Part shown: positions 1,659-28,727 of the stretch, in pieces
Numbering within the stretch: position 1 is the first letter of the stretch
Layout of the letters: each line of letters starts with the position of its first letter
Virus record (IMG/VR): IMGVR_UViG_2636415959_000002
DNA length: 50,938 nt
DNA from: a virus
Lineage: Duplodnaviria; Heunggongvirae; Uroviricota; Caudoviricetes
Direction: 5' to 3' (one strand)
Made by a program: the position numbers and the translations under genes
The notes under the pieces: generated by a model
Told to the model about the DNA's origin: nothing
The model's input: only the letters and a program-made list of their open reading frames with translations
Databases searched by the model: none

Positions 1659-4130
1659 TTAAGAATCAGCCTGACTCGGGATCAGTTTTTGCCAGATAGC
1701 TGAAACGTATTTTGCCTGGTAACGGGCGTCATCAAGTGCATTATGGCGCTCACCTTCGAATGGAATAGCCGTTCTGGCATCGAAGTCTATGGCTTTCCCC
1801 AGCTCAACGATTGTGCGTACATCGCGATCGTTGTAGTAACGCCACGGGCAGGGGATTCCCTGCCGTTCGTATGAACGGCGCAAAATCGTGTTGTCGAAGT
1901 TGGCTCCATTTCCCCAGACATGAACAAAAAATTCACCGGAGTTTTCGTCGATAAATTCCCGCAATTGTAACAGTGCATCATCTAACGGGATTTCATCGGT
2001 CATAATGGCAGATTGCGCTTCGCGTGATTGCTTAAGCCACCATTTAATGGTGTCCCGATCAATGACTCCGCCAGCAGTTTCCAGATCGATAGTCTTACTA
2101 AATTCCGGTCCCATATCTCCGGTTTGCGGATCGAAAAATATTGCACCTATTGAGATGATCGGGGCATCAGGATTTTTTCCCATGGTTTCAAGGTCGATCA
2201 TTAGATGGTCACACGTCCTGCTGGTGGATGTGATTTCGTGATGACCGTTCACCTTAATTGAGTGATCTGCCGTCTCGCCAGTTTCATTATCGCTATTGTG
2301 ATGCTGATTGCCGCCAGTGTTCTCCTTGTGCTGATGCGCAGTGCCTTCCATTTCCTCCGGATCATTTTCCTGAACTTCAGGCTGATTCTCTCCATCGAAT
2401 ATTTCCTGGTATGTTGCGTCACCCATCACCGCACCACAATCAGGGCAGTTGCCGCCACCGCTATGACCGCAGGCGGTGCAGATCTTTTCCGGTTCCTGTT
2501 GCACTACTGGTTCAGGTTGTTTTGTTTCTGGCTCGTTTTGTTGCGTATTTGGGCTGTTTTGTTCCGCTTTCTGGTCGTTCTGTTCCGTTTCTTGCTGGTT
2601 CTGGTTCACAGAATCGCGGGTCTGGATCCCCTTAACCCATTTCGGATCATTCGGGTCGCTAATCCCTTCAACAAATTCACCACGTGATACTGCAAGCAGT
2701 TCATCGGCGTCAGGCTGGCTGATATTGGCTGCCTGCATAATTTTGTTTACTTCGTCAGCGGTAACTTTTACTGACCCTGGTTGTGCGGTCGTGTCAGATG
2801 CACCAGTATTTTGTTGTGAACCTGAGTATGTACCGTTTTTGCGGGCGAAATATTCTTCTTTCGTGATTTCAGTAGCCCCAGCAGACAGCGCCTTATCCAG
2901 ACCAGAAAGTTTGTTTGCGCGACCGTATTTTTCGCCATCCTTGTCGGTGAAGAGGAAGTAGAACGGCCCCTCACGTTCTACAGATGGTTCGACTTCCACT
3001 TTGCATTCGGTTTTTTCGTTGTCTGGAATTGCCGTTTCCACTGCATCAGTTTCTGGTACTGGCGACGAGAGAGTATCAGTTGCGCTCTGATTTGTTCCTT
3101 CATCTTCAAACACGCCCTTTGTAGTCAGGTATTCAGTAATGTATTTGTTCAGTGCCACAGGGTCTTTGTGAATGTCGATCGGACGTTCACGGACAAGGCC
3201 AAAAATAGTCTGGCGGTCGTAGCGAAGGGCATCAGGCTGTTTGCGCATTGATGCCGAGATACGCTTCCAGTCTTCGCGGTCGTTGTCGATAACTTCATTT
3301 TTTGCCCAGCGATGGATGCTGCCGTCAATGTTTCCGGCATCTACATCACCAGGCCAGAGAGCGTAGGCCAGTTCGTCATCCAGTGTTTTCCATGTCTGCT
3401 TGTATTCGCGATGAATGGCAGCAATGACCGGGCTGATTTTTCCTGTTGAATTTTCAGTGTACTGTTGATTGGCTCTGGCGCGGGCGAGATCAACAACAGA
3501 CGTGTATTTTCCGGTTTCCTTGCGTTCACCTTCGCGACGTTTTTTCCAGATGCGCATCTCTGCCTGAATTTCGGGCCATTTAGCACCAGGAATACATTTA
3601 TGCTTAACCCACCCAATGGCGTGCAACTTAAGCTCCGGATACATGGCGTTAACTTCTGGCATTTTCATCAACGCTTCAACGATATGTCCGTCGAATGTTG
3701 CCATGTCTTCCTGCAACAATTCCTGTGCGCTAATAACCATATCAACGGTGATGTTTTCACATGTGTCGAACTTAACCATGACAGCGTTCTGTACTTCAGG
3801 GGCCAGCTTGTCAAAAGTGACGTTCATCGGATCGGATTCAGTCTCAACCGGGACAAAAGAAGCAGACTCCTCATCCCAGCGGTTTTCCTGCATATATTCA
3901 GCATCCCATGAATCGAGGGCAGGGCGGGGTATGCCAGGTTTATCCTCGCAGACAATAAATTTATAAGCGCAGTCCTGAGCAGCCGGATAATGTTCCAGGA
4001 ACTGCCAGTGAAATTTTGCTCGAGCACGGCGTTCGTCGCCAGCTTCAATGGCTGTGGCTACAGCCACAGCGCCTTCTTCCCTTGTTGCCAGTTCGTCAGG
4101 AATAGCGGCGCAAATAAAGACTTTACTCAT
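1659..4130 (-). CDS. Prophage exonuclease with C-terminal DnaQ-like (DEDDh) 3'-5' exonuclease domain
   Basis: 823-aa ORF; C-terminal ~190 aa has Exo I (MIDLETMG), Exo II (HVWGNGANFD) and Exo III (HNALDDARYQ) motifs; long N-terminal region with a Cys4 ribbon (CTACGHSGGGNCPDCG) and a Gln/Glu-rich linker. Similar proteins are often labelled exodeoxyribonuclease VIII-like in prophages. Confidence 0.8.
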   Translation of the reverse strand: MSKVFICAAIPDELATREEGAVAVATAIEAGDERRARAKFHWQFLEHYPAAQDCAYKFIVCEDKPGIPRPALDSWDAEYMQENRWDEESASFVPVETESDPMNVTFDKLAPEVQNAVMVKFDTCENITVDMVISAQELLQEDMATFDGHIVEALMKMPEVNAMYPELKLHAIGWVKHKCIPGAKWPEIQAEMRIWKKRREGERKETGKYTSVVDLARARANQQYTENSTGKISPVIAAIHREYKQTWKTLDDELAYALWPGDVDAGNIDGSIHRWAKNEVIDNDREDWKRISASMRKQPDALRYDRQTIFGLVRERPIDIHKDPVALNKYITEYLTTKGVFEDEGTNQSATDTLSSPVPETDAVETAIPDNEKTECKVEVEPSVEREGPFYFLFTDKDGEKYGRANKLSGLDKALSAGATEITKEEYFARKNGTYSGSQQNTGASDTTAQPGSVKVTADEVNKIMQAANISQPDADELLAVSRGEFVEGISDPNDPKWVKGIQTRDSVNQNQQETEQNDQKAEQNSPNTQQNEPETKQPEPVVQQEPEKICTACGHSGGGNCPDCGAVMGDATYQEIFDGENQPEVQENDPEEMEGTAHQHKENTGGNQHHNSDNETGETADHSIKVNGHHEITSTSRTCDHLMIDLETMGKNPDAPIISIGAIFFDPQTGDMGPEFSKTIDLETAGGVIDRDTIKWWLKQSREAQSAIMTDEIPLDDALLQLREFIDENSGEFFVHVWGNGANFDNTILRRSYERQGIPCPWRYYNDRDVRTIVELGKAIDFDARTAIPFEGERHNALDDARYQAKYVSAIWQKLIPSQADS

Positions 4131-4223
4131 TTTGTTTTAACCTCATGACAGATTTAAGGATGAACAAATCCCTGCCATTGCTGGCATATAAGAATGAAAC
4201 CGGATATTTATTACGGAACTGTT

Positions 4224-4424
4224 TTAAAGACCTGCCGGGATTTCGATATTATCCTGGTGAATAACTTTATCGACCGGGTAACAGTTACCGGGAATTTTCT
4301 GTTCGGTTGCTGCAGTCACACACTCCTGCATTGTCCTGTGAACACTGACTGCAATATCAACTGGCTCTCCGGAAACAAGAAAAACTGTCAGAACAAGTGC
4401 AAATGCTGTATTCATTGCCAGCAT
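4224..4424 (-). CDS. Small protein with predicted N-terminal signal peptide or membrane anchor
   Basis: ORF 4224..4469; internal start MLAMNTAFALVLTVFLVSGEP gives a 66-aa protein with a hydrophobic leader and only a 13-nt overlap with the upstream ORF. Confidence 0.35.
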   Translation of the reverse strand: MLAMNTAFALVLTVFLVSGEPVDIAVSVHRTMQECVTAATEQKIPGNCYPVDKVIHQDNIEIPAGL

Positions 4425-4705
4425 CCTTTTTGTATCGGACGTAAACGGGCCAACATTGAAAGAATGCATATTTTATTTAATAGCTCCCGTTCGTGTTTTC
4501 TCTTGTTAATGGCATCTTCAGTAAATACAGGGTTACTGATAGTGACACCAATTTCAAAACAACCTTCAGACGTATTAACGTTTGGTAATAACGTTTTCAT
4601 TATCGCGTCCTCAACAATGAATTTTGTGATGCAGTGCCTGGTGCCTCCAGGTGACGTTAACCAGTTAACAATTAACGCCGGATACAGAGAATCCACCCAT
4701 AACAC
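4412..4705 (-). CDS. Hypothetical early-left operon protein
   Basis: 97-aa ORF on the same strand as the exonuclease and repressor-proximal genes; no recognisable motif; start uncertain. Confidence 0.3.
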   Translation of the reverse strand: MLWVDSLYPALIVNWLTSPGGTRHCITKFIVEDAIMKTLLPNVNTSEGCFEIGVTISNPVFTEDAINKRKHERELLNKICILSMLARLRPIQKGCWQ

Positions 4706-5086
4706 TGTTTTTGGTTTTAACTGTTCCGCGTGCGCTTAGCCGCATTCACCGCATCACAAAATTCACTTTAAAAACGGCGGCAGAGCAGTCACGGAGTAAA
4801 ACTGATACCGCCAAACGTCACCAGAAAATTGATAACAGAGGGCGTTGCAGCGGGGTTGTCACTTAAGCGTATGGTCAACCTGACAACTCGGTGTCCTCAA
4901 CGGGGAAGGAATAACCCCGCCATACTTACCGCCGCGCCATTTCGCGGGTTGCCACAACCGGAAGCGCACGGTCGAATTAAATTTAACGACACCGTACAGT
5001 GAGACGAACTTCGCCGTGCGCTTTCGTGTTGTGTGCCTGCTTTTAACCACGTCAGGCGAGGTGGTATCCTTAAAATCACCACAGTT

Positions 5087-5704
5087 TTAAGGATTCATTA
5101 AGCAATGTCGCAACCACCAATAAATCCGCTTAAGAACATGAAAATTGATTACTGGTATAAAGCGCTTACAGTTGTTGGCGCTGCGTTGTTTGTCTTTAAT
5201 GGAACGTCTTTTTTTGACAGATATCCCGTTGTTCCATTGGGTTTTTTGTCCTCCGGCATCTTTTTTATTGGTTTGGGGGAGTGGATTAATCACCCTCTCA
5301 AAGTGAGATTTATTGGTCCTGGAGTTTGGACTCGTGGATATAATCGTTCTTCGTGCGCACTCGGTATCATCTTCGACATACTTGGTTGTTTCCTGATTGT
5401 TACAGGAGTCGTCAAGTTCTTCTGATGTAAAACCGCAAATGGGGCACGTAACGGGAATTTTGAAAAGCGTTTCTCCGGGTTCCAGAACAAAATTTTCTGC
5501 GGTCTGATTTTGCTTCTCATATTTGTGCTCCGCGTCATTGTGAGAGCACATTCTTATTCTGAGTGCCTGTTTAAACTCACTGAAGCTGAGAGCTTCTTCG
5601 CCTTCGGCAAGACCTTCGAAGTATTCTTCGTAAGCCTTTTCCATGATTGTGTCGAAATCCATATCACTCACCTGAGTTTCTTTCCAGCCAGCGACGGGCA
5701 CCAT
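5087..5704 (-). CDS. Hypothetical acidic protein with CxxC motif (3' half may be non-coding)
   Basis: 205-aa ORF; N-terminal ~100 aa acidic with CPICGF; C-terminal half is low-complexity and exactly antisense to the plus-strand membrane ORF 5105..5425. Confidence 0.3.
   Translation of the reverse strand: MVPVAGWKETQVSDMDFDTIMEKAYEEYFEGLAEGEEALSFSEFKQALRIRMCSHNDAEHKYEKQNQTAENFVLEPGETLFKIPVTCPICGFTSEELDDSCNNQETTKYVEDDTECARRTIISTSPNSRTNKSHFERVINPLPQTNKKDAGGQKTQWNNGISVKKRRSIKDKQRSANNCKRFIPVINFHVLKRIYWWLRHCLMNP
5105..5425 (+). CDS. Small integral membrane protein (about 3 predicted TM segments)
   Basis: 106-aa ORF with three hydrophobic stretches (VVGAALFVFNGTSFF, LGFLSSGIFFIGLG, ALGIIFDILGCFLIVTGVV); AGGA upstream of the ATG; antisense to the 3' half of ORF 5087..5704, so only one of the two is likely real. 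Confidence 0.35.
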   Translation: MSQPPINPLKNMKIDYWYKALTVVGAALFVFNGTSFFDRYPVVPLGFLSSGIFFIGLGEWINHPLKVRFIGPGVWTRGYNRSSCALGIIFDILGCFLIVTGVVKFF

Positions 5705-5900
5705 TTTCGGTTTTAAACGTTTTGCTTTTGGTATACGTCATCGCGGTGAACGTACCGTCCTGGTTGGGGAACACGCCACATACCGGAGATTCGCTGTTGC
5801 CAAGATCGATAGTATCCATGCTGACCTCATTTCCCCTTAACGCCGGGGTAGCGGAACAAAAACCTGCTGCATAGTTATTAAAGTTGAACCCTGCCGTCAT
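5664..5900 (-). CDS. Hypothetical 78-aa protein, first gene of the leftward early operon
   Basis: ORF with GAGG about 9 nt upstream of the ATG; lies just downstream (leftward) of the operator-like repeats at about 6000-6045. Confidence 0.4.
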   Translation of the reverse strand: MTAGFNFNNYAAGFCSATPALRGNEVSMDTIDLGNSESPVCGVFPNQDGTFTAMTYTKSKTFKTENGARRWLERNSGE

Positions 5901-5994
5901 GTTCTTACGCCTCGGGCTGGCTACTTAACCCCTGACCACTGCCTGGTAACTCGAAGTATTGCCCTGCATTCTGTGGGGCGGGGTGGGTGGCAGG

Positions 5995-6045
5995 CATATA
6001 ATGTACTTTGCGTTCATTGTTGTAAAGTACTATTAGTACATTTTG
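5995..6045. promoter_or_regulatory. Operator-like repeats (OL-like) left of the repressor gene
   Basis: A/T-flanked GTAC motifs: aatgtacttt (~6001), aaagtactat and tagtacattt (~6024-6042) forming an imperfect palindrome; the same motif recurs in the repressor/cro intergenic region. Confidence 0.35.
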
Positions 6046-6116
6046 TGTGTAAAAAAATGAGATGGGATAAAGTGAAGCACAAACCCGGAGGAAGGCGCTA
6101 CCGGATTTATGCTGGT

Positions 6117-6536
6117 TTAAGAGGCTTTTTGTTTTTTCTTTCGTGCTAACTCTTCGTAAATTGCATTGTACTTCTGTTTTTTCTCTTCAAGAGTTTTTAA
6201 AAGTTCATCTGTCTCACTGTCAGGGAGCTCGTCCAGAAGGTCAATGATGATTTTTTGTCTTGGATTTAACTCCTGATAGAAACGTACCTGTCCACTTTCT
6301 TCTGTATCCTCTCCCAAAAGATAGGTTGGTGTTGTTCCTATTAGTGTTGCTAATTCCCTTAATTTCTCCCGGCGAGGAATTGTTTCGCCATTAAACCATT
6401 TGCTAACCGCTTTTGGTGTTAATTTCATTCGACGGGCAATTTCTGCCTGCCTTCCATGTTGTTCATAACCAGCGTTTTCACAGGCTAGCGCAAGCCTACT
6501 GGCGAACTCTTTACGCGCTTTATCTTCATGAACCAT
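6117..6536 (-). CDS. Prophage repressor, XRE-family HTH, non-LexA-like
   Basis: 139-aa ORF with N-terminal helix-turn-helix (QAEIARRMKLTPKAVSKWFNGETIP) and no S24 peptidase domain; divergent from a Cro-like gene. Confidence 0.75.
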   Translation of the reverse strand: MVHEDKARKEFASRLALACENAGYEQHGRQAEIARRMKLTPKAVSKWFNGETIPRREKLRELATLIGTTPTYLLGEDTEESGQVRFYQELNPRQKIIIDLLDELPDSETDELLKTLEEKKQKYNAIYEELARKKKQKAS

Positions 6537-6615
6537 AAGTTCAATGATATTCGCTCTTGAATGTACTGTCAGTTCTGTTATAGCATGTACTCAAAGTTCA
6601 CATTGTGAGGGTGAT
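6537..6615. promoter_or_regulatory. Divergent promoter/operator region (OR-like) between repressor and Cro-like gene
   Basis: 79-bp intergenic region with two copies of atgtact (~6561-6567 and ~6585-6591) matching the repeats at ~6000-6042. Confidence 0.5.
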
Positions 6616-6870
6616 ATGAACCAGAAAACACTTGAAGATGTAATCAAAACTGTTCGCGTTGCTGTTGTGGCCGACGTTTGTGGTGTCAGCCAAAGAGCAA
6701 TCTATAAATGGATGGATAACGGAAAATTGCCTCGCACAGAATATACCGGCGAAACAAATTACGCTGAAAAAATCGCTCTTGCATCAAACGGATTATTTTC
6801 TGCCGATGCAATTTTAACTATTGGCAGGAATAAAACTACTACGAAAAAGCTGATGGGAGTTGATTCATGA
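6616..6870 (+). CDS. Cro-like HTH DNA-binding protein (YdaS-like)
   Basis: 84 aa from internal start MNQKTLEDV with GAGGG RBS; HTH segment VADVCGVSQRAIYKWMDNGKLP; divergent from the repressor. Confidence 0.7.
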   Translation: MNQKTLEDVIKTVRVAVVADVCGVSQRAIYKWMDNGKLPRTEYTGETNYAEKIALASNGLFSADAILTIGRNKTTTKKLMGVDS

Positions 6871-7292
6871 AAATCAAGCATGAACACATCCGCATGGCGA
6901 TGAATGCCTGGGCGCATCCGGACGGCGAAAAAGTACCGGCTGCGAAAATTACCAAAGCGTATTTCGAGCTGGGAATGACGTTCCCGGAACTGTATGACGA
7001 CAGCCATCCGGAAGCCCTGGCTCGCAATACTCAGAAAATTTTCCGCTGGGTGGAGAAAGACACCCCTGATGCGGTTAAAAAAATTCAGGCGTTGTTACCA
7101 GCTATCGAAAAAGCAATGCCACCTCTGCTGGTGGCCCGAATGCGCAGTCATAGCTCAGCCTATTTTCGGGAACTAGTGGAGACGCGGGAACGACTGGTGA
7201 GAGACGCTGATGATTTTGTCGCAGTGGCGATCGCTGGTTTCAACCAGATGAATCGTGGTGGCCCTGCAGGAAATATTGTGGCTGTGCATTGA
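6867..7292 (+). CDS. ydaT: YdaT-like (CII-like) regulator of Rac-type prophages
   Basis: 141-aa ORF MKIKHEHIRMAMNAWAHPDGEKVPAAKITKAYFELGMTFPELYDD..., recalled as closely matching E. coli Rac YdaT; overlaps the stop of the Cro-like gene (operon coupling). Confidence 0.65.
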   Translation: MKIKHEHIRMAMNAWAHPDGEKVPAAKITKAYFELGMTFPELYDDSHPEALARNTQKIFRWVEKDTPDAVKKIQALLPAIEKAMPPLLVARMRSHSSAYFRELVETRERLVRDADDFVAVAIAGFNQMNRGGPAGNIVAVH

Positions 7293-8474: not shown

Positions 8475-8897
8475 GTGGCAAAAGTTTTTACACAAGAAGA
8501 GCGGGAAAAAATTAAAGGGCAGGTTGTTGAACTCGTACGCCAGAGTGGGCGCGAGACGTTAAGACAACTGGAAACTAAAACTGGGGCAACAAAATATCTG
8601 ATGAACGTTCTGGCCAGAGAGCTGGTTGCCAGTGGCGATGTATACAACTCTGGTTACGGGTTATTCCCGTCTGAACAGGCGCGTAAGGACTGGCAAAATG
8701 CCCGTAAAAAGCTCTCAAGGGCAAAGCTGAAGAAACCATCTGCGGTTGATCCGGACCTTATCTGGTCATTACCTGATGGAGAAATACGTCGTTACGACAG
8801 GCGTCATAATATGATTTGTACTGAGTGTCGTAAAAGCGAAGTTATGCAGCGCATATTGTCGTTTTATCAGGGGGATGTTCGGTATTTATTGAAGTGA
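8475..8897 (+). CDS. Hypothetical protein (GTG start)
   Basis: 140-aa ORF with AGGAGG shortly upstream of GTG; basic; CxxC near the C-terminus; no family recognised. Confidence 0.45.
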   Translation: MAKVFTQEEREKIKGQVVELVRQSGRETLRQLETKTGATKYLMNVLARELVASGDVYNSGYGLFPSEQARKDWQNARKKLSRAKLKKPSAVDPDLIWSLPDGEIRRYDRRHNMICTECRKSEVMQRILSFYQGDVRYLLK

Positions 8898-9159
8898 CGA
8901 GATTAAAGTGCATTAGTTCAGATGCAAATTGACATTTTGTGGCACAGGGTAGAGCTAGCGTGGTTGTCCGCTTTGTGCCAACAGCGGACATTATGGAAGG
9001 TCAGAGTTAAAGATTAAAATGGGATGCTGTGTGTTTTCTCCAGGTTTTGCTCTATACCTTTCGGGATACTCCACCGACAGAATACGAAAATCAACATTAT
9101 CAACGGCTCGAAGTGTCTAGATTATCCATGGCAATTCATGGGAAATCCCATCCAACGGC

Positions 9160-10551
9160 TTATGCTTCATGTTGCTTTTTGAGATCGCTTCTAGCATAGC
9201 TCCACTCAATAATGTTGTCGGGTCGTTGCTGATCGAAAAGGATACGGGATTCAATACCATTACCTAAAAAGCTGGTATTCCCATCTACGTAAGAAGCTAT
9301 CCCTTGTGAACCAACACGAAGAATATTTTCTAATGGCTGCTTTGTTCTTGCTGCATCGCTAAGGAGATATAAACCCGGGTACGTTTTGTTAGCACGGTGA
9401 AAAAAAAGTTCATTGTCAAAACACATGACGATGATTATTTGTCCCGACATGAGATCGGAGAGCATTTCAGTTGGCAGATGCAAACTCATAAATGGTCGAG
9501 ACAAAGGGTCAAAGAATGAATCATTTATATTCACAACAGGGCTTTTTATACCGAGACTATCCATCCATCCATTGAAGGCAACAAAGCCCATTTCAGAATC
9601 ACGGTACATACCTAAGAACAAACATTCATCAATAGTATCAATTGCCCAATTTTTTCCTCCGCGAATAATCTCCCACATTTTAACTAAGCGGTGGGTATAA
9701 AATTCAGACGGATGATCTATCTCATTGATTTTAACTTTAGACTGATGAAAGTTGTCAAAGCCCTCGCCAGTATTAATCGCCTCCAGAACATTCATGCCAC
9801 GAATGATTTGCCTTTTTATGCGATTAAATTGCTTAACATCATTATCAGGCATATTGTTAATGAAGTTTTCTTCAAAGTGCGGACATTCTGAGATAACAGA
9901 AAATTCAGCAGCTTCATAAAGCTCATTATTCTTTTCACCTGTTTTAACTTCCACGAGCTGGAAGCCATCCAGTAGATTAAAGGTGACTAAATCTCCCACA
10001 TGAACAAATGTGCTCATGTCAGAGACAATCGCTACGGAGTGTTTGTCCTGGTTGATAAGATCGGCTGCGACCATAGAATCAATTATGTTATCTTCTGATA
10101 GATTGTCATTGCTTGCATTAATAGGTAAACGCCGCAAACTAGAGTGTTCTTCATCAAGAATGCTCCAAATTATTGAGTCAATACAACGGCGAAGAATAAG
10201 AATTTCAAATTTTTTTAAACTTATTTCATCAATACACTTTTCTTTATTTTCTTTATCCTTGTTTCGATGGTGCTCTTTTTTTTCAGTTTCCAATCTTTTT
10301 ATATCTCTCAGCCGAATAATAATCTCAAAAGATATGATTTTTTGTGAGTCTTTCCAATTTTTGAGACAGGTTTCATACTCTGCAAGAAAATCCTCATCAT
10401 TGGAAGGTAGTTCTTGAATTGGATTCCCTCCCCTTATCATTTTGGCAAGTGCATGCATTAAAGATACATAATGAGGCGATAAAATTGTCCAAAACTTCCT
10501 AAACGGTTTGTACTTTTCAAGAAAAGTTGACTCATCAGTATAATTCATCAT
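9160..10551 (-). CDS. Uncharacterised 463-aa protein, downstream partner of the AbiH-like gene; possible PD-(D/E)xK nuclease-like core
   Basis: ORF 9160..10557; likely ATG at 10551 (MMNYTDEST) with GAGG upstream; AT-rich codon usage; segment FVHVGDLVTFNLLDGFQLVEVKTGEKN fits D-x13-E-x-K; no Walker motif or other signature recognised. Confidence 0.6.
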   Translation of the reverse strand: MMNYTDESTFLEKYKPFRKFWTILSPHYVSLMHALAKMIRGGNPIQELPSNDEDFLAEYETCLKNWKDSQKIISFEIIIRLRDIKRLETEKKEHHRNKDKENKEKCIDEISLKKFEILILRRCIDSIIWSILDEEHSSLRRLPINASNDNLSEDNIIDSMVAADLINQDKHSVAIVSDMSTFVHVGDLVTFNLLDGFQLVEVKTGEKNNELYEAAEFSVISECPHFEENFINNMPDNDVKQFNRIKRQIIRGMNVLEAINTGEGFDNFHQSKVKINEIDHPSEFYTHRLVKMWEIIRGGKNWAIDTIDECLFLGMYRDSEMGFVAFNGWMDSLGIKSPVVNINDSFFDPLSRPFMSLHLPTEMLSDLMSGQIIIVMCFDNELFFHRANKTYPGLYLLSDAARTKQPLENILRVGSQGIASYVDGNTSFLGNGIESRILFDQQRPDNIIEWSYARSDLKKQHEA

Positions 10552-10640
10552 AACCAAACCTCATTCCTCTTATCTATTTTCCTCAAGGTATAAAATACCA
10601 GCCTTTTTTACATAATTATAGTTATAATATGAAGTCTCAT

Positions 10641-11510
10641 TCAGATATCTTCATACTGTACGTAAGAAATATTTGAGCCTCTGATACCATAATCTTCTAA
10701 ACTGCCTGATTTTTTCTCACCTCTATATAAAGCAACTATCCATCGAGCATTTTCTTGGATGCTTTTATTTATTTCAGTAAAGTATTCACCGTCAACTTCG
10801 GCGAGCGAGTGGCCTAAAACGATGACCTCGTCCACATTTTTAAGCGATGAGAAAAAAACGTTTTCTTCTTTAATTATGTCTTCGCTGGGCTTGAATGTAT
10901 TACCGAAGTATTCGTTTATTCTGTCGTATGCCTCTGCTATTCTTGTATCTTGATCCGGTCCTATATATGGATTTAGTGACTTTTCCACCCTAAAACTATG
11001 ACCAAGTATGAGATCGTCATCGTAACTACAATTGCCGTGAATATGTATGATTTGCTCGTCTGGAACGGCATAGATCTGCTGCAAGGTATTTGTATAATTA
11101 AATGAAAAATAGATGCTTTCTCTTGGTATGGGCGGGATGTATTGCTTAGGATTGTAAGCATCGGCTATGTTAATCCCTTTAACCCAATCAGCGAATTGCT
11201 CCTTCAAACGAGCTGACAGCATTTGTGTGATTTTATTTACTTCATATTGGTAATCGTGATGATAAGCATCGCTCCAATCATCGGTATTGTATGAAGCCAA
11301 AAATATCTCACTGTTTTGAAGGATAAGCTCATAATCAATTTCACCTAAAGCATTTTCTAACTCATTCCACTCGTCCCCAGCAGGAATGTATTCTTCTATC
11401 GCGTCATATAGATCTTGGTCATTTTTTTCTACATACGACTTAAAGTGCTTGTATCCTGTTGGTAAGCCATGACGCATGTCAAATCCATTTCCTATTATGT
11501 AAAGCCTCAT
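10641..11510 (-). CDS. AbiH-family (abortive infection) protein
   Basis: 289 aa from internal ATG (MRLYIIGNGFDMRHGLPTGYKHF) with AAGGGA RBS; the IIGNGFD-x-HGL-x-T-Y motif is the N-terminal signature I recall for the AbiH family; AT-rich. Confidence 0.7.
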   Translation of the reverse strand: MRLYIIGNGFDMRHGLPTGYKHFKSYVEKNDQDLYDAIEEYIPAGDEWNELENALGEIDYELILQNSEIFLASYNTDDWSDAYHHDYQYEVNKITQMLSARLKEQFADWVKGINIADAYNPKQYIPPIPRESIYFSFNYTNTLQQIYAVPDEQIIHIHGNCSYDDDLILGHSFRVEKSLNPYIGPDQDTRIAEAYDRINEYFGNTFKPSEDIIKEENVFFSSLKNVDEVIVLGHSLAEVDGEYFTEINKSIQENARWIVALYRGEKKSGSLEDYGIRGSNISYVQYEDI

Positions 11511-11968
11511 TGTTTTTCCCTTAGTCGAATTGTATAAAAATACTAACATGGCCTGCTCCACGTTGACTACTATCCCCTCCTTTGAGTAATGCCTTCATCA
11601 GATGTAACAACATTTGCGAGCTTCCACAGTTCGCTCAAAGCGGACTAGAAGGTTAGCTTGCGTCGGACTTGGCGTATTTAAAGAAGTGCTGGTGGAGACT
11701 GGTTGTTGTGTTCCATTTCTACAGAACAAAATCACAGAAACTATACCCAATAGTTATATTGAATCAATGATGAGACAGCCTCATATTTATCAGGACTGGT
11801 GTACGTCCAATACAGGAGGTTGTCGTGCTGGTTCTCAAATGTGCGCTAGCTATTGCGGCTGTAATGGCAATTTATTGTCTTGCTGTTGTTCTTACGGATC
11901 GCCTTTCTGATTGATTTTATATTGGCGAGGTGACGTGAGTTAAGTAGAATTGCTGCGGGTGCTTGAGG

Positions 11969-12004
11969 CTATCTGCCTCAGGCATGAACACCAAAGGCAG
12001 ATAG
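11969..12004 (+). promoter_or_regulatory. Perfect 10-bp inverted repeat in the hokD 5' leader (probable mRNA fold)
   Basis: ctatctgcct ... aggcagatag separated by a 16-nt loop, about 120 nt upstream of the hokD ATG. Confidence 0.3.
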
Positions 12005-12125
12005 AGAAAAGCCCCAGTTAACATTACGCGTCCTGCAAGACGCTTAACATTAATCTGAGGCCAATTTCATGCTAGACACATGTAGGTTAGCCTCTTACGT
12101 GCCGAAAGGCAAGGAGAAGCAGGCT

Positions 12126-12281
12126 ATGAAGCAGCAAAAGGCGATGTTAATCGCCCTGATCGTCATCTGTTTAACCGTCATAGTGACGGCACTGGTAACG
12201 AGGAAAGACCTCTGCGAGGTACGAATCCGAACCGGCCAGACGGAGGTCGCTGTCTTCACAGCTTACGAACCTGAGGAGTAA
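12126..12281 (+). CDS. hokD: Hok-family type I toxin (HokD/RelF-like), 51 aa
   Basis: MKQQKAMLIALIVICLTVIVTALVTRKDLCEVRIRTGQTEVAVFTAYEPEE: single TM helix plus conserved Hok C-terminal motif; AGGAG RBS; in-frame upstream extension (ORF from 12069) is reminiscent of mok. Confidence 0.85.
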   Translation: MKQQKAMLIALIVICLTVIVTALVTRKDLCEVRIRTGQTEVAVFTAYEPEE

Positions 12282-12288
12282 GAGACCA

Positions 12289-12374
12289 GGCGAGGGAGAA
12301 ATCCCTCGCCACCTCTGATGTGTCAGGCATCCTCAATGCACCCGCACTTAACCCGCTTCGGCGGGTTTATTTTA
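12289..12374 (+). terminator. Two 3' hairpins after hokD, the second followed by a T-run (rho-independent terminator)
   Basis: ggcgaggga-gaaa-tccctcgcc (~12289-12310) and acccgc-ttcg-gcgggt followed by ttatttta (~12351-12374). Confidence 0.45.
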
Positions 12375-12628
12375 TCTGTAAATATTTTTATAAAAATAAT
12401 GCCCACACACAGCATAAAACAAAAAGTATCACAGATAAAAAAGGAGCGTAATGTGCAGATTTGTTGTTTTCCATATTTACTCACTTTAACATAATCAATA
12501 TTGATATGGTTGTTGTTTTGGTGGTTTCAAACGAGATGTTATGGTGATCTGGTAAAATTGCATAACATTAAAATTTAATTTATCTAATCGCTTTTAATAA
12601 TAAGCGTTGTGTTTATCCCAACAATCTG

Positions 12629-15469: not shown

Positions 15470-15769
15470 AAAAATTCCTTAATACTGATAACTTGGCGCA
15501 CTATACACACGTTCCTGAAGAAAGCTATAGTTTTTTGATGGGGTTGAAGATGGCTGGATGTCTAAAATAAACATTGCTTCATATGTTCAACTATGCGTTA
15601 ATGATTGCGTCGGTTTGAAGAACAGACGATATACGAAGTAGTTTACTAAAGCAGTTCTCATTTCAGGTGTTATTCACTTATTCCTTCTTTGAGTCTCTCC
15701 AATTAAGTACGAAGTCGTTTCTGTTATGCAAACCATTTATGCCGAAAGGCTCAAGTTAAGGAATGTAGA

Positions 15770-15985
15770 ATGTCAAATAAAATGACTGGTTTAGTAAAAT
15801 GGTTTAACGCTGATAAAGGTTTCGGCTTTATTTCTCCTGTTGATGGTAGTAAAGATGTGTTTGTGCATTTTTCTGCGATTCAGAATGATAATTATCGAAC
15901 CTTATTTGAAGGTCAAAAGGTTACCTTCTCTATAGAGAGTGGTGCTAAAGGTCCTGCAGCAGCAAATGTCATCATTACTGATTAA
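15770..15985 (+). CDS. cspB: Cold-shock protein CspB-like
   Basis: 71 aa, [38 protein letters not shown]... with canonical RNP1/RNP2 motifs. Confidence 0.85.
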
Positions 15986-16266
15986 AATTCATCGCTCGTC
16001 TGTATACGATAACGAAGAAGGCTGATGCCTGAGTAGAGATACGGACAGAGTAGTGAATATTGGATTTCTTTAATAAAAATTAAGGAGGTCCAATACATGA
16101 AACAATGGCCAGCATATTTGGCAAAATCTTAATCAGGAAAAGTATGCTAACCATTGTGGTGAAGTGCAGGTTTGCTGCATGAATAGTTTTACAGCAGAAG
16201 CTAACTGCTGGCATGGCAAAACAAAGTGCGTAAGTGGATGACTCCCACAAAAAGCACCACAATCTC

Positions 16267-18293: not shown

Positions 18294-18655
18294 GGTAATA
18301 TTAAATCGGAACATTTACATCGCGGAATGTAAAATTTAAATAAAAAGGACTCTTCCATGAGCCAAAATTCCTGAAATCTTAAGGGTAAGATAAAAGGTCT
18401 TAATCAGAATGACACGTTTTATTAATAAATAAAGCTATTCTTTCATTGCTGTGTTTTTCTTTACAAAAGTAATCCTTGCTATGGGTGGTTAATCATGCGT
18501 TAATGGTGTTCTGGTTTGTTACAAATTTATCTGAAGCAGTCATTGTTATAATTTTATTATTTGTACCTCTTGAGATTTCCTTGTTGGTTTTTCTCTCTGA
18601 TATTTTTTTTCGGACCATTCTGCCCAAGGGCTAATTTCTTCAAAAGGTAATAATT

Positions 18656-18868
18656 ATGTCTAACAAAATGACTGGTTTAGTAAAATGGTTTAACCCTGAA
18701 AAAGGTTTTGGTTTCATCACGCCGAAAGATGGCAGCAAAGATGTGTTTGTCCATTTCTCAGCAATTCAGAGCAACGATTTCAAAACATTAACTGAGAATC
18801 AGGAAGTTGAATTTGGTATTGAGAACGGACCTAAAGGTCCTGCCGCTGTTCATGTAGTGGCGCTTTGA
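18656..18868 (+). CDS. cspI: Cold-shock protein CspI-like
   Basis: 70 aa [42 protein letters not shown]...; long AT-rich 5' leader typical of csp genes. Confidence 0.85.
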
Positions 18869-19213
18869 GGTAGACAATATTACAAACCATATTCACTTTA
18901 GATGCCCGTGTTGTCATGGTTCCCAGTATAGAACATCATCTTTTGATGTTTCTGACATGAATCCTTTCGGGGCAAAATGTATCTTTTGTAAATCAATGAT
19001 GATTACATTTGATAATATTTCACAATACTTAAATGCCAGCCGTCTGTCGTTGGATTTAAAAAAGTGAAAATGAAGGCTCCTTCGGGAGCTTTTTGGCTTG
19101 GTGTCTATTCGATGGATACTCACATACTACGGTAACATCATGAAAAAAATCATAGTTTTTTTAACTCTGAACCAGCAGTGGTAGTGCCAGCGATGACTGG
19201 AGTTAACACCATC

Positions 19214-26899: not shown

Positions 26900-27925
26900 A
26901 TGTCGATGTACACAACCGCCCAGCTGCTGGCGGCAAATGAGAAGAAGTTTAAGTTTGATCCGCTGTTTCTGCGTCTCTTTTTCCGTGAGAGCTATCCCTT
27001 CACCACGGAGAAAGTCTATCTCTCACAAATTCCGGGACTGGTAAACATGGCGCTGTACGTTTCGCCGATTGTTTCCGGTGAGGTTATCCGCTCCCGTGGC
27101 GGCTCCACCTCTGAATTTACACCGGGATATGTCAAGCCGAAGCATGAGGTGAATCCGCAGATGACCCTGCGTCGCCTGCCGGATGAAGATCCGCAGAATC
27201 TGGCGGACCCGGCTTACCGCCGCCGTCGCATCATCATGCAGAACATGCGAGACGAAGAGCTGGCCATTGCTCAGGTCGAAGAGATGCAGGCAGTTTCTGC
27301 TGTGCTTAAGGGCAAATACACCATGACCGGTGAAGCCTTCGATCCGGTTGAGGTGGATATGGGCCGCAGTGCGGCGAACAACATCACACAGTCCGGTGGT
27401 ACGGAGTGGAGCAAGCGTGACAAGTCCACGTATGACCCGACCGACGATATCGAAGCCTATGCGCTGAACGCCAGCGGAGTGGTGAATATCATCGTGTTTG
27501 ATCCGAAAGGCTGGGTGCTGTTCCGTTCCTTCAAAGCCGTCAGGGAGAAGCTGGATACCCGTCGCGGCTCTAATTCCGAGCTGGAGACAGCGGTAAAAGA
27601 CCTGGGCGAAGCGGTGTCCTATAAGGGGATGTATGGCGATACGGCGATCGTCGTGTATTCCGGACAGTACGTGGAAAACGACGTCAAAAAGAACTTCCTG
27701 CCGGACAACACGATGGTGCTGGGGAACACTCAGGCACGCGGTCTGCGCACCTATGGCTGCATTCAGGATGCGGACGCACAGCGCGAAGGTATTAACGCCT
27801 CTGCCCGCTACCCGAAAAACTGGGTGACCACCGGCGATCCGGCGCGTGAGTTCACCATGATTCAGTCAGCACCGCTGATGCTGCTGGCTGATCCTGATGC
27901 GTTCGTGTCCGTACAACTGGCGTAA
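26900..27925 (+). CDS. E: Major capsid protein E
   Basis: MSMYTTAQLLAANEKKFKFDPLFLRLFF..., lambda gpE-like, 341 aa (start taken from the ORF-track frame). Confidence 0.95.
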   Translation: MSMYTTAQLLAANEKKFKFDPLFLRLFFRESYPFTTEKVYLSQIPGLVNMALYVSPIVSGEVIRSRGGSTSEFTPGYVKPKHEVNPQMTLRRLPDEDPQNLADPAYRRRRIIMQNMRDEELAIAQVEEMQAVSAVLKGKYTMTGEAFDPVEVDMGRSAANNITQSGGTEWSKRDKSTYDPTDDIEAYALNASGVVNIIVFDPKGWVLFRSFKAVREKLDTRRGSNSELETAVKDLGEAVSYKGMYGDTAIVVYSGQYVENDVKKNFLPDNTMVLGNTQARGLRTYGCIQDADAQREGINASARYPKNWVTTGDPAREFTMIQSAPLMLLADPDAFVSVQLA

Positions 27926-27966
27926 TCATGGCCCTTCGGGGCCATTTTCTCTCTGTGGAGGAGTCC

Positions 27967-28362
27967 ATGACGAAAGATGAACTGATTGCCCGTCTTCAGG
28001 TGCTGGGTGAGCAACTGAACCGTGATGTCAGCCTGACGGGGACGAAAGAAGAACTGGTGCTCCGTGTGGCAGAGCTGGAAGAGGAGCTTGATGACACGGA
28101 TGACGCTGCCGGTCAGGACACATCTGTCAGCCCGGAAAATGCGCTGACCGGACATGAAAATGAGGTGGTATCAGCGCAGCCGGATACCGTGATTGATACG
28201 GCTGCTCTGGTCACGGTCGTGGCACTGGTGACGCTGCATACTGATGCACTTCACGCCACGCGGGATGAGCCTGTGGCATTTGTGCTGCCGGGAACGGCGT
28301 TTCGTGTCTCTGCCGGTGTGGCAGCCGAAATGACAGAACATGGCCTGGCCAGAATGCAATAA
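27967..28362 (+). CDS. FI: DNA-packaging protein FI
   Basis: MTKDELIARLQVLGEQLNRDVSLTGTKEEL..., lambda gpFI-like; GGAGG RBS. Confidence 0.85.
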   Translation: MTKDELIARLQVLGEQLNRDVSLTGTKEELVLRVAELEEELDDTDDAAGQDTSVSPENALTGHENEVVSAQPDTVIDTAALVTVVALVTLHTDALHATRDEPVAFVLPGTAFRVSAGVAAEMTEHGLARMQ

Positions 28363-28373
28363 CGGGAGGCGCT

Positions 28374-28727
28374 GTGGCTGATTCCGATAACCTGTTCGAT
28401 GCTGCCATTGCCCGCGCCGATGAAACGATACGCGGGTACATGGGAACGTCAGCCACCATGACATCCGGTGAGCTGTCCGGTGCTGTGATACGTGGTGTTT
28501 TTGATGACCCTGAAAATATCAGCTATGCCGGACAGGGGGTGCGCGTTGAAGGCTCCAGCCCGTCCCTGTTTGTCCGGACTGATGATGTGCGGCAGCTGCG
28601 GCGTGGAGACACACTGACCATCGGCGAGGAAAACTTCTGGGTGGACCGGATTTCGCCGGATGATGGCGGAAGCTGTCATCTCTGGCTTGGGCGTGGCGTG
28701 CCGCCTGCCGTTAACCGTCGCCGCTGA
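28374..28727 (+). CDS. FII: Head completion protein FII
   Basis: 117 aa MADSDNLFDAAIARADETIRGYMG..., lambda gpFII-like. Confidence 0.9.
   Translation: MADSDNLFDAAIARADETIRGYMGTSATMTSGELSGAVIRGVFDDPENISYAGQGVRVEGSSPSLFVRTDDVRQLRRGDTLTIGEENFWVDRISPDDGGSCHLWLGRGVPPAVNRRR

Follow-up and report, generated by a model that had tools for sequence, protein, structure and literature searches.

The AT-rich cassette of ~2.6 kb in a Qin-like, lambdoid prophage of E. coli very probably represents a mini defence island of two systems, i.e., two autonomous single-gene anti-phage systems arranged in tandem on the minus strand: (i) abiH (10641..11510), encoding a 289-aa AbiH-family protein (single-gene abortive infection/defence), and (ii) the gene (9160..10551) for the 463-aa protein WP_000982358.1, which is identical to the recently validated defence protein DS-37. 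The cassette is already known in its parts, AbiH and DS-37 standing side by side, and is not a new two-gene system. All coordinates refer to the window, i.e., the whole 50,938-nt stretch of DNA analysed. A previous interpretation from the letters alone (hereafter, sequence-only reading) had proposed an undescribed two-gene architecture of an AbiH family protein with an uncharacterised partner. The main result is a correction: the apparent new architecture consists of two one-gene systems that already have names and stand one behind the other in a cargo slot of the prophage.

Organization of the cassette

Both genes are oriented antisense to the flanking plus-strand genes and are separated by a spacer of 89 nt (10552..10640, minus strand). 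The GC content is 0.31–0.40 over positions ~9400–11600 vs 0.48–0.57 on either side, in the replication and ydfU/Q regions. The sequence-only reading had described just such a layout (two AT-rich minus-strand genes about 90 bp apart, transcribed opposite to their surroundings), which is borne out in each of these respects. Cassette boundaries and module junction were mapped by DNA alignment. The spacer is composite, its first ~27 nt belonging to the abiH module and the other ~60 nt, including the ribosome-binding site of the DS-37 gene (AAGAGGAATGAGG), to the DS-37 module.

The upstream edge of the cassette is formed by a putative leader/promoter region of ~135 nt (11511..11645, minus strand) that accompanies abiH. 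When the E. coli and Klebsiella loci were aligned with two from Morganellaceae, high conservation began ~135 nt before the ATG, and farther upstream the sequences diverged. No convincing RNA structure was found in this leader (–15.3 kcal/mol, one compensatory pair). On the opposite side, the region 3' of the DS-37 gene (8987..9159, minus strand) is common to the Klebsiella prophage copy, with no break in the E. coli–Klebsiella alignment as far as the compared segment extends; judged from this alignment, the region may be either a cassette tail or common prophage backbone.

Scanning of positions 8800–12400 detected no terminator-like site on the minus strand between abiH and the DS-37 gene, and both genes may therefore be co-transcribed. 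Since promoter-like sites occurred in the same scan at chance level (10 found vs 9.7 expected), the promoter/terminator predictions provide no basis for deciding on co-transcription.

The AbiH protein

The open reading frame at 10641..11561 (minus strand) includes the start MRLYIIGNGFDMRHGLPTGYKHF at 11510, yielding a protein of 289 aa, whereas the RefSeq start at 11549 yields a 302-aa version of AbiH. The alignment of homologues and an AAGGGA ribosome-binding site favour the start at 11510. Assignment to the AbiH family, as proposed by the sequence-only reading on the basis of the N-terminal signature, is confirmed by a full-length match to Pfam AbiH (PF14253; 233.3 bits vs a cut-off of 30.9, E 6.6e-69; residues 3–259 aligned to profile positions 1–258 of 260), by a PADLOC AbiH match restricted to three partial stretches (E 1.3e-27), by a match to PHROG 19951 (E 5.5e-181), and by the RefSeq product name AbiH.

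The protein contains SIR2-like motifs, i.e., G7-N8-G9-F10-D11, N138-Y139-T140 and H158-G159, of which G7-N8-G9, N138 and H158-G159 are invariant across 30 AbiH homologues down to 42 % identity. A sequence-profile search against the PDB yielded no sirtuin match, and direct comparison with E. coli CobB (hhalign) aligned only the HIHG/HMHG motif (1.6 % probability). A fold of AbiH resembling that of sirtuins was described elsewhere (PMC13064643), and a study in Vibrio likewise classified AbiH as SIR2-like, with a one-gene SIR2-like AbiH conferring 5.7 logs of protection (bioRxiv 10.1101/2024.06.14.598830). Reports on the present E. coli AbiH allele were not found in the literature.

The closest known counterpart is AbiH of Lactococcus lactis, which DefenseFinder and PADLOC handle as a single-gene system. 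Common to both are the full-length Pfam match and the PADLOC match, the single-gene distribution of close orthologues, the G-x-G, N and H-G motifs, and carriage by mobile elements. They differ in location (enterobacterial lambdoid prophage vs lactococcal chromosome or ICE) and in the second defence gene that follows abiH in the present cassette. By analogy with SIR2 defence proteins, AbiH would most likely abort infection through destruction of NAD+. Such a mode of action is suggested by the NAD+-depleting systems DSR1/DSR2, ThsA, SIR2-HerA and short pAgo-SIR2; unlike these proteins, AbiH is compact (~290 aa) and has no recognisable appended sensor domain.

Identity and published activity of DS-37

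The prophage locus is 100 % identical over 2701 nt to that of E. coli G3/10, where the coding sequence of the 463-aa protein corresponds to WP_000982358.1. According to accession and sequence, this protein is SC24, the working name of DS-37 (PMC13092281 Tables S6, S7, S8), which was reported by DeWeirdt et al. in the DefensePredictor study (Science 2026; PMC13092281). There is zero difference at the protein level over all 463 aa. In the same study, DS-37 is entered as a single CDS (coordinates 26984–28375; defensive = TRUE), and it was protective when cloned alone in E. coli MG1655, with –log(EOP) values of 6.48 for Bas1, 4.78 for Bas9, 4.32 for Bas69, 4.0 for Bas3 and 1.94 for SECphi27 (PMC13092281). 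Thus, the supposition of the sequence-only reading that the 463-aa gene serves in anti-phage defence was correct, but its description of the protein as uncharacterised was not.

In the accessible portions of that publication, the extent of upstream DNA in the DS-37 construct is not stated, the main text does not discuss DS-37, the supplements include no catalytic mutants of it, and the neighbouring AbiH is not described (PMC13092281). The present locus provides DS-37 with a natural context, namely next to AbiH in a mobile cassette of ~2.6 kb that is common to lambdoid prophages and IncFIB plasmids.

Conserved residues and predicted structure of DS-37

The 463-aa protein has no meaningful match in Pfam, PADLOC v2.0.0, NCBIfam or PHROGs, and sequence-profile searches against the PDB with shallow and deep alignments of the DS-37 family returned nothing. 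The family comprises 681 representative clusters at 50 % identity. Across 100 distant members no Pfam domain recurred, the best match being SduA_C in 4 members (E 0.013 or weaker). Some family members carry N-terminal extensions (~670–690 aa in total); in these extended relatives, Pfam and PADLOC revealed no fused domain that would point to a partner.

Seven residues (D178, D187, E201, K203, G205, R244 and Q248) are invariant in 100–111 representatives down to ~20 % identity and represent obvious targets for mutagenesis. D178, D187, E201 and K203 are likewise invariant in 25 close homologues. The AF2 model (pLDDT 81.5, pTM 0.83) predicts an N-terminal long helical hairpin (residues ~52–131), a putative PD-(D/E)xK-like core (~153–221) harbouring the latter four residues, and a C-terminal α/β region. 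Within the predicted core, the succession of a helix (153–167), three strands (172–176, 188–192, 196–200) and a second helix (206–221) fits an αβββα core, the comparison being one of element order only.

Conserved residues and model together suggest DS-37 to be a PD-(D/E)xK nuclease with a D178/D187/E201-x-K203 centre. The authors of the DefensePredictor study also noted a weak HHpred match to PDDEXK/NERD at residues 154–204 (PMC13092281). No significant profile or fold match of DS-37 to a known PD-(D/E)xK member was found, including Shedu SduA/DUF4263, NERD-domain proteins and solved nucleases. The likeness to Shedu and NERD proteins is one of presumed working principle only: a single polypeptide with a D...D...ExK centre, non-catalytic N- and C-terminal regions, and occurrence in defence islands. 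DS-37 would most likely act as a phage-triggered nuclease of the PD-(D/E)xK type, with its N-terminal helical hairpin and C-terminal α/β domain possibly serving in oligomerisation or sensing.

Joint and separate occurrence of abiH and DS-37

The pair of abiH and DS-37 was encountered only in the form of this one cassette, whose DS-37 copies show an identity of ≥85 %; its carriers are lambdoid prophages of E. coli and Klebsiella as well as IncFIB plasmids. In Klebsiella, the copy is part of a lambdoid prophage and has a dGTPase defence gene as neighbour; in Enterobacter, the cassette is found on an IncFIB plasmid that also contains phage genes. Within E. coli, both genes co-occur in 64–65 of 5426 genomes, a count without independent weight because these copies represent one clone at >99 % identity. 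The phage collection searched contained no copy of the cassette DNA and no relative of DS-37, and a scan of genome contigs retrieved only 3 distant loci. The pair has stayed intact through ~10 % protein divergence and on three element backbones, a persistence that would be equally expected if the genes cooperated.

Beyond this lineage the two genes occur apart. Orthologues of abiH lacking a DS-37-like neighbour are present in Morganellaceae (91 % identity, three different contexts), Pantoea (87 %) and Serratia (75 %). Among DS-37 relatives of ≤61 % identity, AbiH is absent in all those examined, which represent 12 or more contexts, among them a lone moron in a Raoultella P2-like prophage, a neighbour of Gabija-like genes in Aeromonas, a locus near PD-T7-1 in Yersinia, the tra region of an ICE in Serratia, a small Mob plasmid, plasmids of Rahnella and Ewingella, as well as loci in Pseudomonas and Nevskia. 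DS-37 stands alone in 9 or more of the examined lineages. The two-gene architecture of the sequence-only reading is not supported: the supposed partner is the single-gene system DS-37, orthologues of abiH at 75–91 % identity do without it, joint conservation is confined to one cassette lineage and not found in the more distant relatives examined, and each gene matches an already named system (AbiH, DS-37). A toxin–antitoxin relationship, with either protein as the antidote to the other, was also considered and was rejected on account of the occurrence of each gene alone in close relatives.

The junction between the modules is visible in the DNA alignment. Morganellaceae loci containing only abiH lose DNA homology ~27 nt past the abiH stop codon, while the Klebsiella locus continues. 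From this alignment, recombination ~27 nt after the stop codon is the event that joined the abiH and DS-37 modules. Thus joined, both genes would now be passed on as a unit among the prophages and phage-like plasmids found in Enterobacteriaceae, the probable reason being that a lysogen with stacked defences is more broadly protected; neither of the two genes would need the other.

Alternative interpretations

AbiH and the 463-aa protein could instead form one obligate two-gene system, e.g., sensor plus effector or effector plus regulator, as may be read from the tandem arrangement on the same strand across 89 nt devoid of a terminator-like site, the shared AT-rich composition, and the conservation of the unit in E. 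coli and Klebsiella prophages and on IncFIB plasmids. This interpretation is very improbable and already largely refuted by the protection afforded by DS-37 alone (PMC13092281), the activity of a one-gene AbiH in Vibrio (bioRxiv 10.1101/2024.06.14.598830), the abiH orthologues of 75–91 % identity without DS-37, the DS-37 relatives of ≤61 % identity never accompanied by AbiH in 12 or more contexts, and the recombination junction between the modules. Even less credible is a role of the 463-aa protein in mobility or homing, as the nuclease of a small mobile cassette with variable cargo in tow (AbiH, Abi_2, DUF3644), rather than in defence. The conserved nuclease-like motif, the combination of a variable upstream with a constant downstream gene, and the occurrence on diverse types of mobile element would agree with such a role; it conflicts, however, with the measured anti-phage phenotype of the gene alone (PMC13092281), its frequent solitary occurrence without cargo, and module junctions that differ from context to context.

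Functional coupling without obligation, with DS-37-family genes recurrently taking the distal position in operons whose first gene is an unrelated, autonomous defence gene to form a layered or synergistic unit, appears unlikely. DS-37 would then constitute a second layer, e.g., a backup or amplifier nuclease that fires in response to inhibition or triggering of the first system. Some DS-37 relatives are indeed located directly behind a PD-T4-5-like or PDC-S19-like gene, so that together with the present cassette three single-gene systems, known or candidate and unrelated to each other (SIR2-like AbiH, HEPN/Abi_2 PD-T4-5-like, DUF3644-REase PDC-S19-like), directly precede a DS-37-family gene in the same orientation. 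The intergenic distance is 89 nt in E. coli and only 17–18 nt in Pantoea and Dickeya, too short to accommodate a separate promoter; further upstream genes co-oriented with the DS-37 relative are found in Morganella and Albitalea. These counts come from a small sample with no null expectation set beside them, and defence genes cluster in islands anyway. Moreover, the solitary occurrence of DS-37 in at least 9 lineages and the protection of up to 6 logs by DS-37 alone (PMC13092281) speak against coupling. For two autonomous systems in tandem, the preferred interpretation, the question of additive vs synergistic action of stacked systems is a live one in phage-defence biology, and the cassette offers a cheap test of it.

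The cargo slot of Qin-like prophages

Next to the cassette, and outside of it, lies a module of sok antisense RNA and hokD type I toxin (11957..12281, plus strand). The sok RNA is recognised by Rfam RF01794 at 11957..12131 (119.9 bits vs a gathering score of 59), and hokD, already named as neighbour by the sequence-only reading, is annotated at 12126..12281 (plus strand). Homology to the Qin prophage of E. coli K-12 restarts at position 12112 of the window. In K-12 Qin, the gene order is hokD-relE-relB-ydfV-flxA, with relBE, ydfV and flxA filling the same position beside sok/hokD, between replication-side genes and hokD-ydfU-Q, that is occupied by abiH and DS-37 in the present prophage. The two cargoes differ in orientation: relB-relE are co-oriented with hokD, whereas abiH and DS-37 are located on the opposite strand. 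The swapped cargo slot and the moron-like placement suspected by the sequence-only reading thus hold, the genes being inserted in a variable prophage slot and antisense to their flanks. The relBE position of Qin accordingly emerges as an exchangeable slot for defence and toxin–antitoxin genes.

Locus and prophage setting

A pair of open reading frames is present on the minus strand as the sequence-only reading had described it, AT-rich, closely spaced, antisense to the flanking genes and beside hokD: (i) abiH (10641..11510; 289 aa from the start MRLYIIGNGFDMRHGLPTGYKHF at 11510, within a frame spanning 10641..11561) and (ii) a gene for a 463-aa protein (9160..10551), which begins 89 nt past the abiH stop. 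GC content is 0.31-0.40 across roughly 9400-11600 as compared to 0.48-0.57 in the flanks (composition scan). Its orientation is opposite to that of both hokD-ydfU-Q and the genes on the replication side (a YdaT-family gene, a 358-aa ORF and DUF977). The window represents a Qin-like prophage of E. coli, inserted beside rspAB/ynfA, and is 100 % identical to E. coli strain G3/10 across the 2.7 kb queried. An Rfam match to sok (11957..12131) adjoins hokD (12126..12281). The "swapped cargo slot" suggested by the sequence-only reading is correct, since the same slot in K-12 Qin is filled by relB-relE (with hokD), ydfV and flxA, and K-12 homology resumes at window 12112. As expected in a Qin-type prophage, Rfam also matched the DicF sRNA (4775-4826, minus strand) and two cspA-type thermoregulator leaders (15609-16001 and 18510-18895, plus strand) upstream of cspB/cspI-like genes.

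Identity of the two genes

The abiH product matches Pfam PF14253 end to end (233 bits, cut-off 30.9; E 6.6e-69) as well as the PADLOC AbiH model (E 1.3e-27), upholding the proposed AbiH assignment; its RefSeq product name is already "AbiH family protein". Residues invariant among 30 homologues (down to 42 % identity) include G7-N8-G9-F10-D11, H14, N138-Y139-T140 and H158-G159, resembling the G-x-G, Asn and His-Gly motifs of sirtuins. A Vibrio AbiH was reported as a one-gene SIR2-like system conferring 5.7 logs of protection (bioRxiv 10.1101/2024.06.14.598830). The sirtuin link was not reproduced by sequence: a PDB profile search gave no match, and hhalign against CobB aligned HIHG with HMHG alone (1.6 % probability). 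The abiH leader (~135 nt, 11511-11645, minus strand) is highly conserved at the DNA level in E. coli, Klebsiella and Morganellaceae and moves with abiH; inspection for RNA structure and covariation revealed nothing convincing.

The 463-aa protein had no match in Pfam, PADLOC v2.0.0, NCBIfam or PHROGs. In strain G3/10 it corresponds to RefSeq WP_000982358.1, an accession listed in the DefensePredictor supplementary tables (Science 2026, PMC13092281), where Table S6 gives it as SC24 (working identifier), named DS-37, defensive = TRUE, category "Predicted novel defense gene". The tested unit was a single CDS (26984-28375 of NZ_QOXM01000003.1; Table S6), with -log(EOP) values of 6.48 for Bas1, 4.78 for Bas9, 4.32 for Bas69, 4.0 for Bas3 and 1.94 for SECphi27 (Table S7). 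Given the 89-nt gap to abiH, DS-37 was handled as its own unit without abiH. The main text of that paper does not discuss DS-37, and its supplements contain no catalytic mutants. The neighbour of abiH is hence a defence gene, as had been suspected, and is DS-37, an already named single-gene system.

Separability of abiH and DS-37

The sequence-only reading had further proposed a distinct two-gene AbiH-plus-partner system. Pairing proved limited to loci with DS-37 at least 85 % identical, and the more distant relatives of either gene, where examined, occur without the other. The pair is found (i) in 64-65 of 5426 complete E. coli genomes, as one clone (>99 % identity), (ii) in Klebsiella pneumoniae, within another kind of lambdoid prophage and adjacent to a dGTPase defence gene, and (iii) on IncFIB plasmids of ~110 kb in Enterobacter, Klebsiella and Raoultella, the one Enterobacter plasmid inspected also carrying phage-type genes. 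In the K. pneumoniae prophage (locus 1503-2864), the cassette lies ~1.1 kb from the dGTPase-type gene (PADLOC E 2.6e-142), forming a three-system cluster.

A word-index search for DS-37 relatives retrieved 48 clusters only; a profile search retrieved 681 representative clusters at E ≤ 1e-3, 178 of them at E ≤ 1e-30. At the loci examined, AbiH was never beside relatives of 61 % identity or less. Those that stand alone comprise a moron of a P2-like prophage, flanked by gpU and tail-fibre genes (Raoultella), neighbours of Gabija-like genes (Aeromonas) and of PD-T7-1 (Yersinia), a gene within an ICE tra region (Serratia), one on a small Mob plasmid, others on Rahnella and Ewingella plasmids, and members in Pseudomonas and Nevskia. 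A Morganella relative has two unannotated genes upstream. On a Pantoea plasmid (locus 5982-6001) the homologue follows a gene for a PD-T4-5-like Abi_2 protein after 18 nt, and on the Dickeya zeae chromosome (locus 5983-6001) a PDC-S19-like DUF3644 + EC042_2821 gene after 17 nt; because they start 17-18 nt past the upstream stop codon, each almost certainly shares a transcript with an unrelated defence system that is supposed to consist of one gene. DS-family genes of this kind often directly follow another autonomous defence gene.

The Albitalea terrae homologue (locus 3159-7144) stands among genes for SHOCT-like, PDC-S31-like and Schlafen/AlbA_2 proteins, its frame overlapping the SHOCT-like gene upstream and the Schlafen/AlbA_2 gene downstream. 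Distant homologues near DUF2971/PDC-S31-like genes occur in two unrelated hosts, A. terrae and a Rahnella plasmid (locus 6761-7516). On a 610-kb Bacillus cereus plasmid (locus 4001-4890), a DS-family remnant (26 % identical), broken over three small ORFs, lies directly 3' of genes for an RNA-directed DNA polymerase and an AAA ATPase, which suggests that the family extends to Bacillota defence islands.

Conversely, 91 %-identical AbiH orthologues of Morganellaceae occupy three different contexts (adjoining a Septu-like PtuA/PDC-M01 pair and an integrase, adjoining an nSTAND3 protein gene, and in another island), none with a DS-37-like gene; orthologues of Pantoea (87 %) and Serratia (75 %) are likewise alone. 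Module boundaries were drawn from a four-way DNA alignment of E. coli, Klebsiella and Morganellaceae loci. Common to all four is the abiH module, from ~135 nt 5' of the ATG (~11645) to ~27 nt 3' of the stop (~10614), where the Morganellaceae loci wholly diverge. E. coli-Klebsiella homology extends across the spacer and DS-37 to ~8987, no less than 170 nt past the gene. The cassette therefore consists of two modules joined in the spacer; judged from these alignments, the junction is a recombination seam, and the cassette now travels as a single piece.

On this comparative evidence abiH and DS-37 are separable. By published data, the single DS-37 CDS and an AbiH homologue each work without the other, and functional coupling of the two is improbable. 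The proposed two-gene system is not supported: both genes are named single-gene systems that occur separately and meet at a recombination seam. Protection by the stacked pair may be additive or synergistic.

Part of the E. coli population shows decay of the cassette (9160-11510), with IS1 inside abiH in several genomes and inside DS-37 in one; in ~50 genomes abiH is cut to its 5' 61 % or 22 % and DS-37 is gone.

Predicted mechanism of DS-37

The AF2 model of DS-37 is confident (pLDDT 81.5, pTM 0.83). It opens at the N terminus with a long hairpin of two helices (52-96 and 100-131), followed by helix 153-167, three strands (172-176, 188-192 and 196-200) and helix 206-221; a further long helix (236-261) precedes the alpha/beta region at the C terminus. 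Seven residues (D178, D187, E201, K203, G205, R244 and Q248) do not vary in alignments of 25 close and 100-111 distant homologues (to ~20 % identity). D187 is positioned just ahead of the second strand and E201-x-K203 closes the third, the same pattern as in the PD-(D/E)xK nuclease core. This placement favours a putative phage-triggered PD-(D/E)xK nuclease as the likeliest mechanism, at moderate confidence. Residues 154-204 are annotated PDDEXK/NERD at HHpred probability 0.47 (PMC13092281 Table S8). The "EXK position / D position" entry for SC24 in that table (hhpred_domains), 210-212 / 199, misfits DS-37, in which 210-212 read ELY and 199 is L; fitting positions (201-203 / 187) stand on the RED7 row, and these columns appear displaced between rows in the text copy.

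Some members of the deep family (P0162, P0165, P0166, P0182) are ~670-690 aa long owing to an extra N-terminal region of ~250 aa. This region has no Pfam or PADLOC match and may represent an appended sensor domain not yet described.
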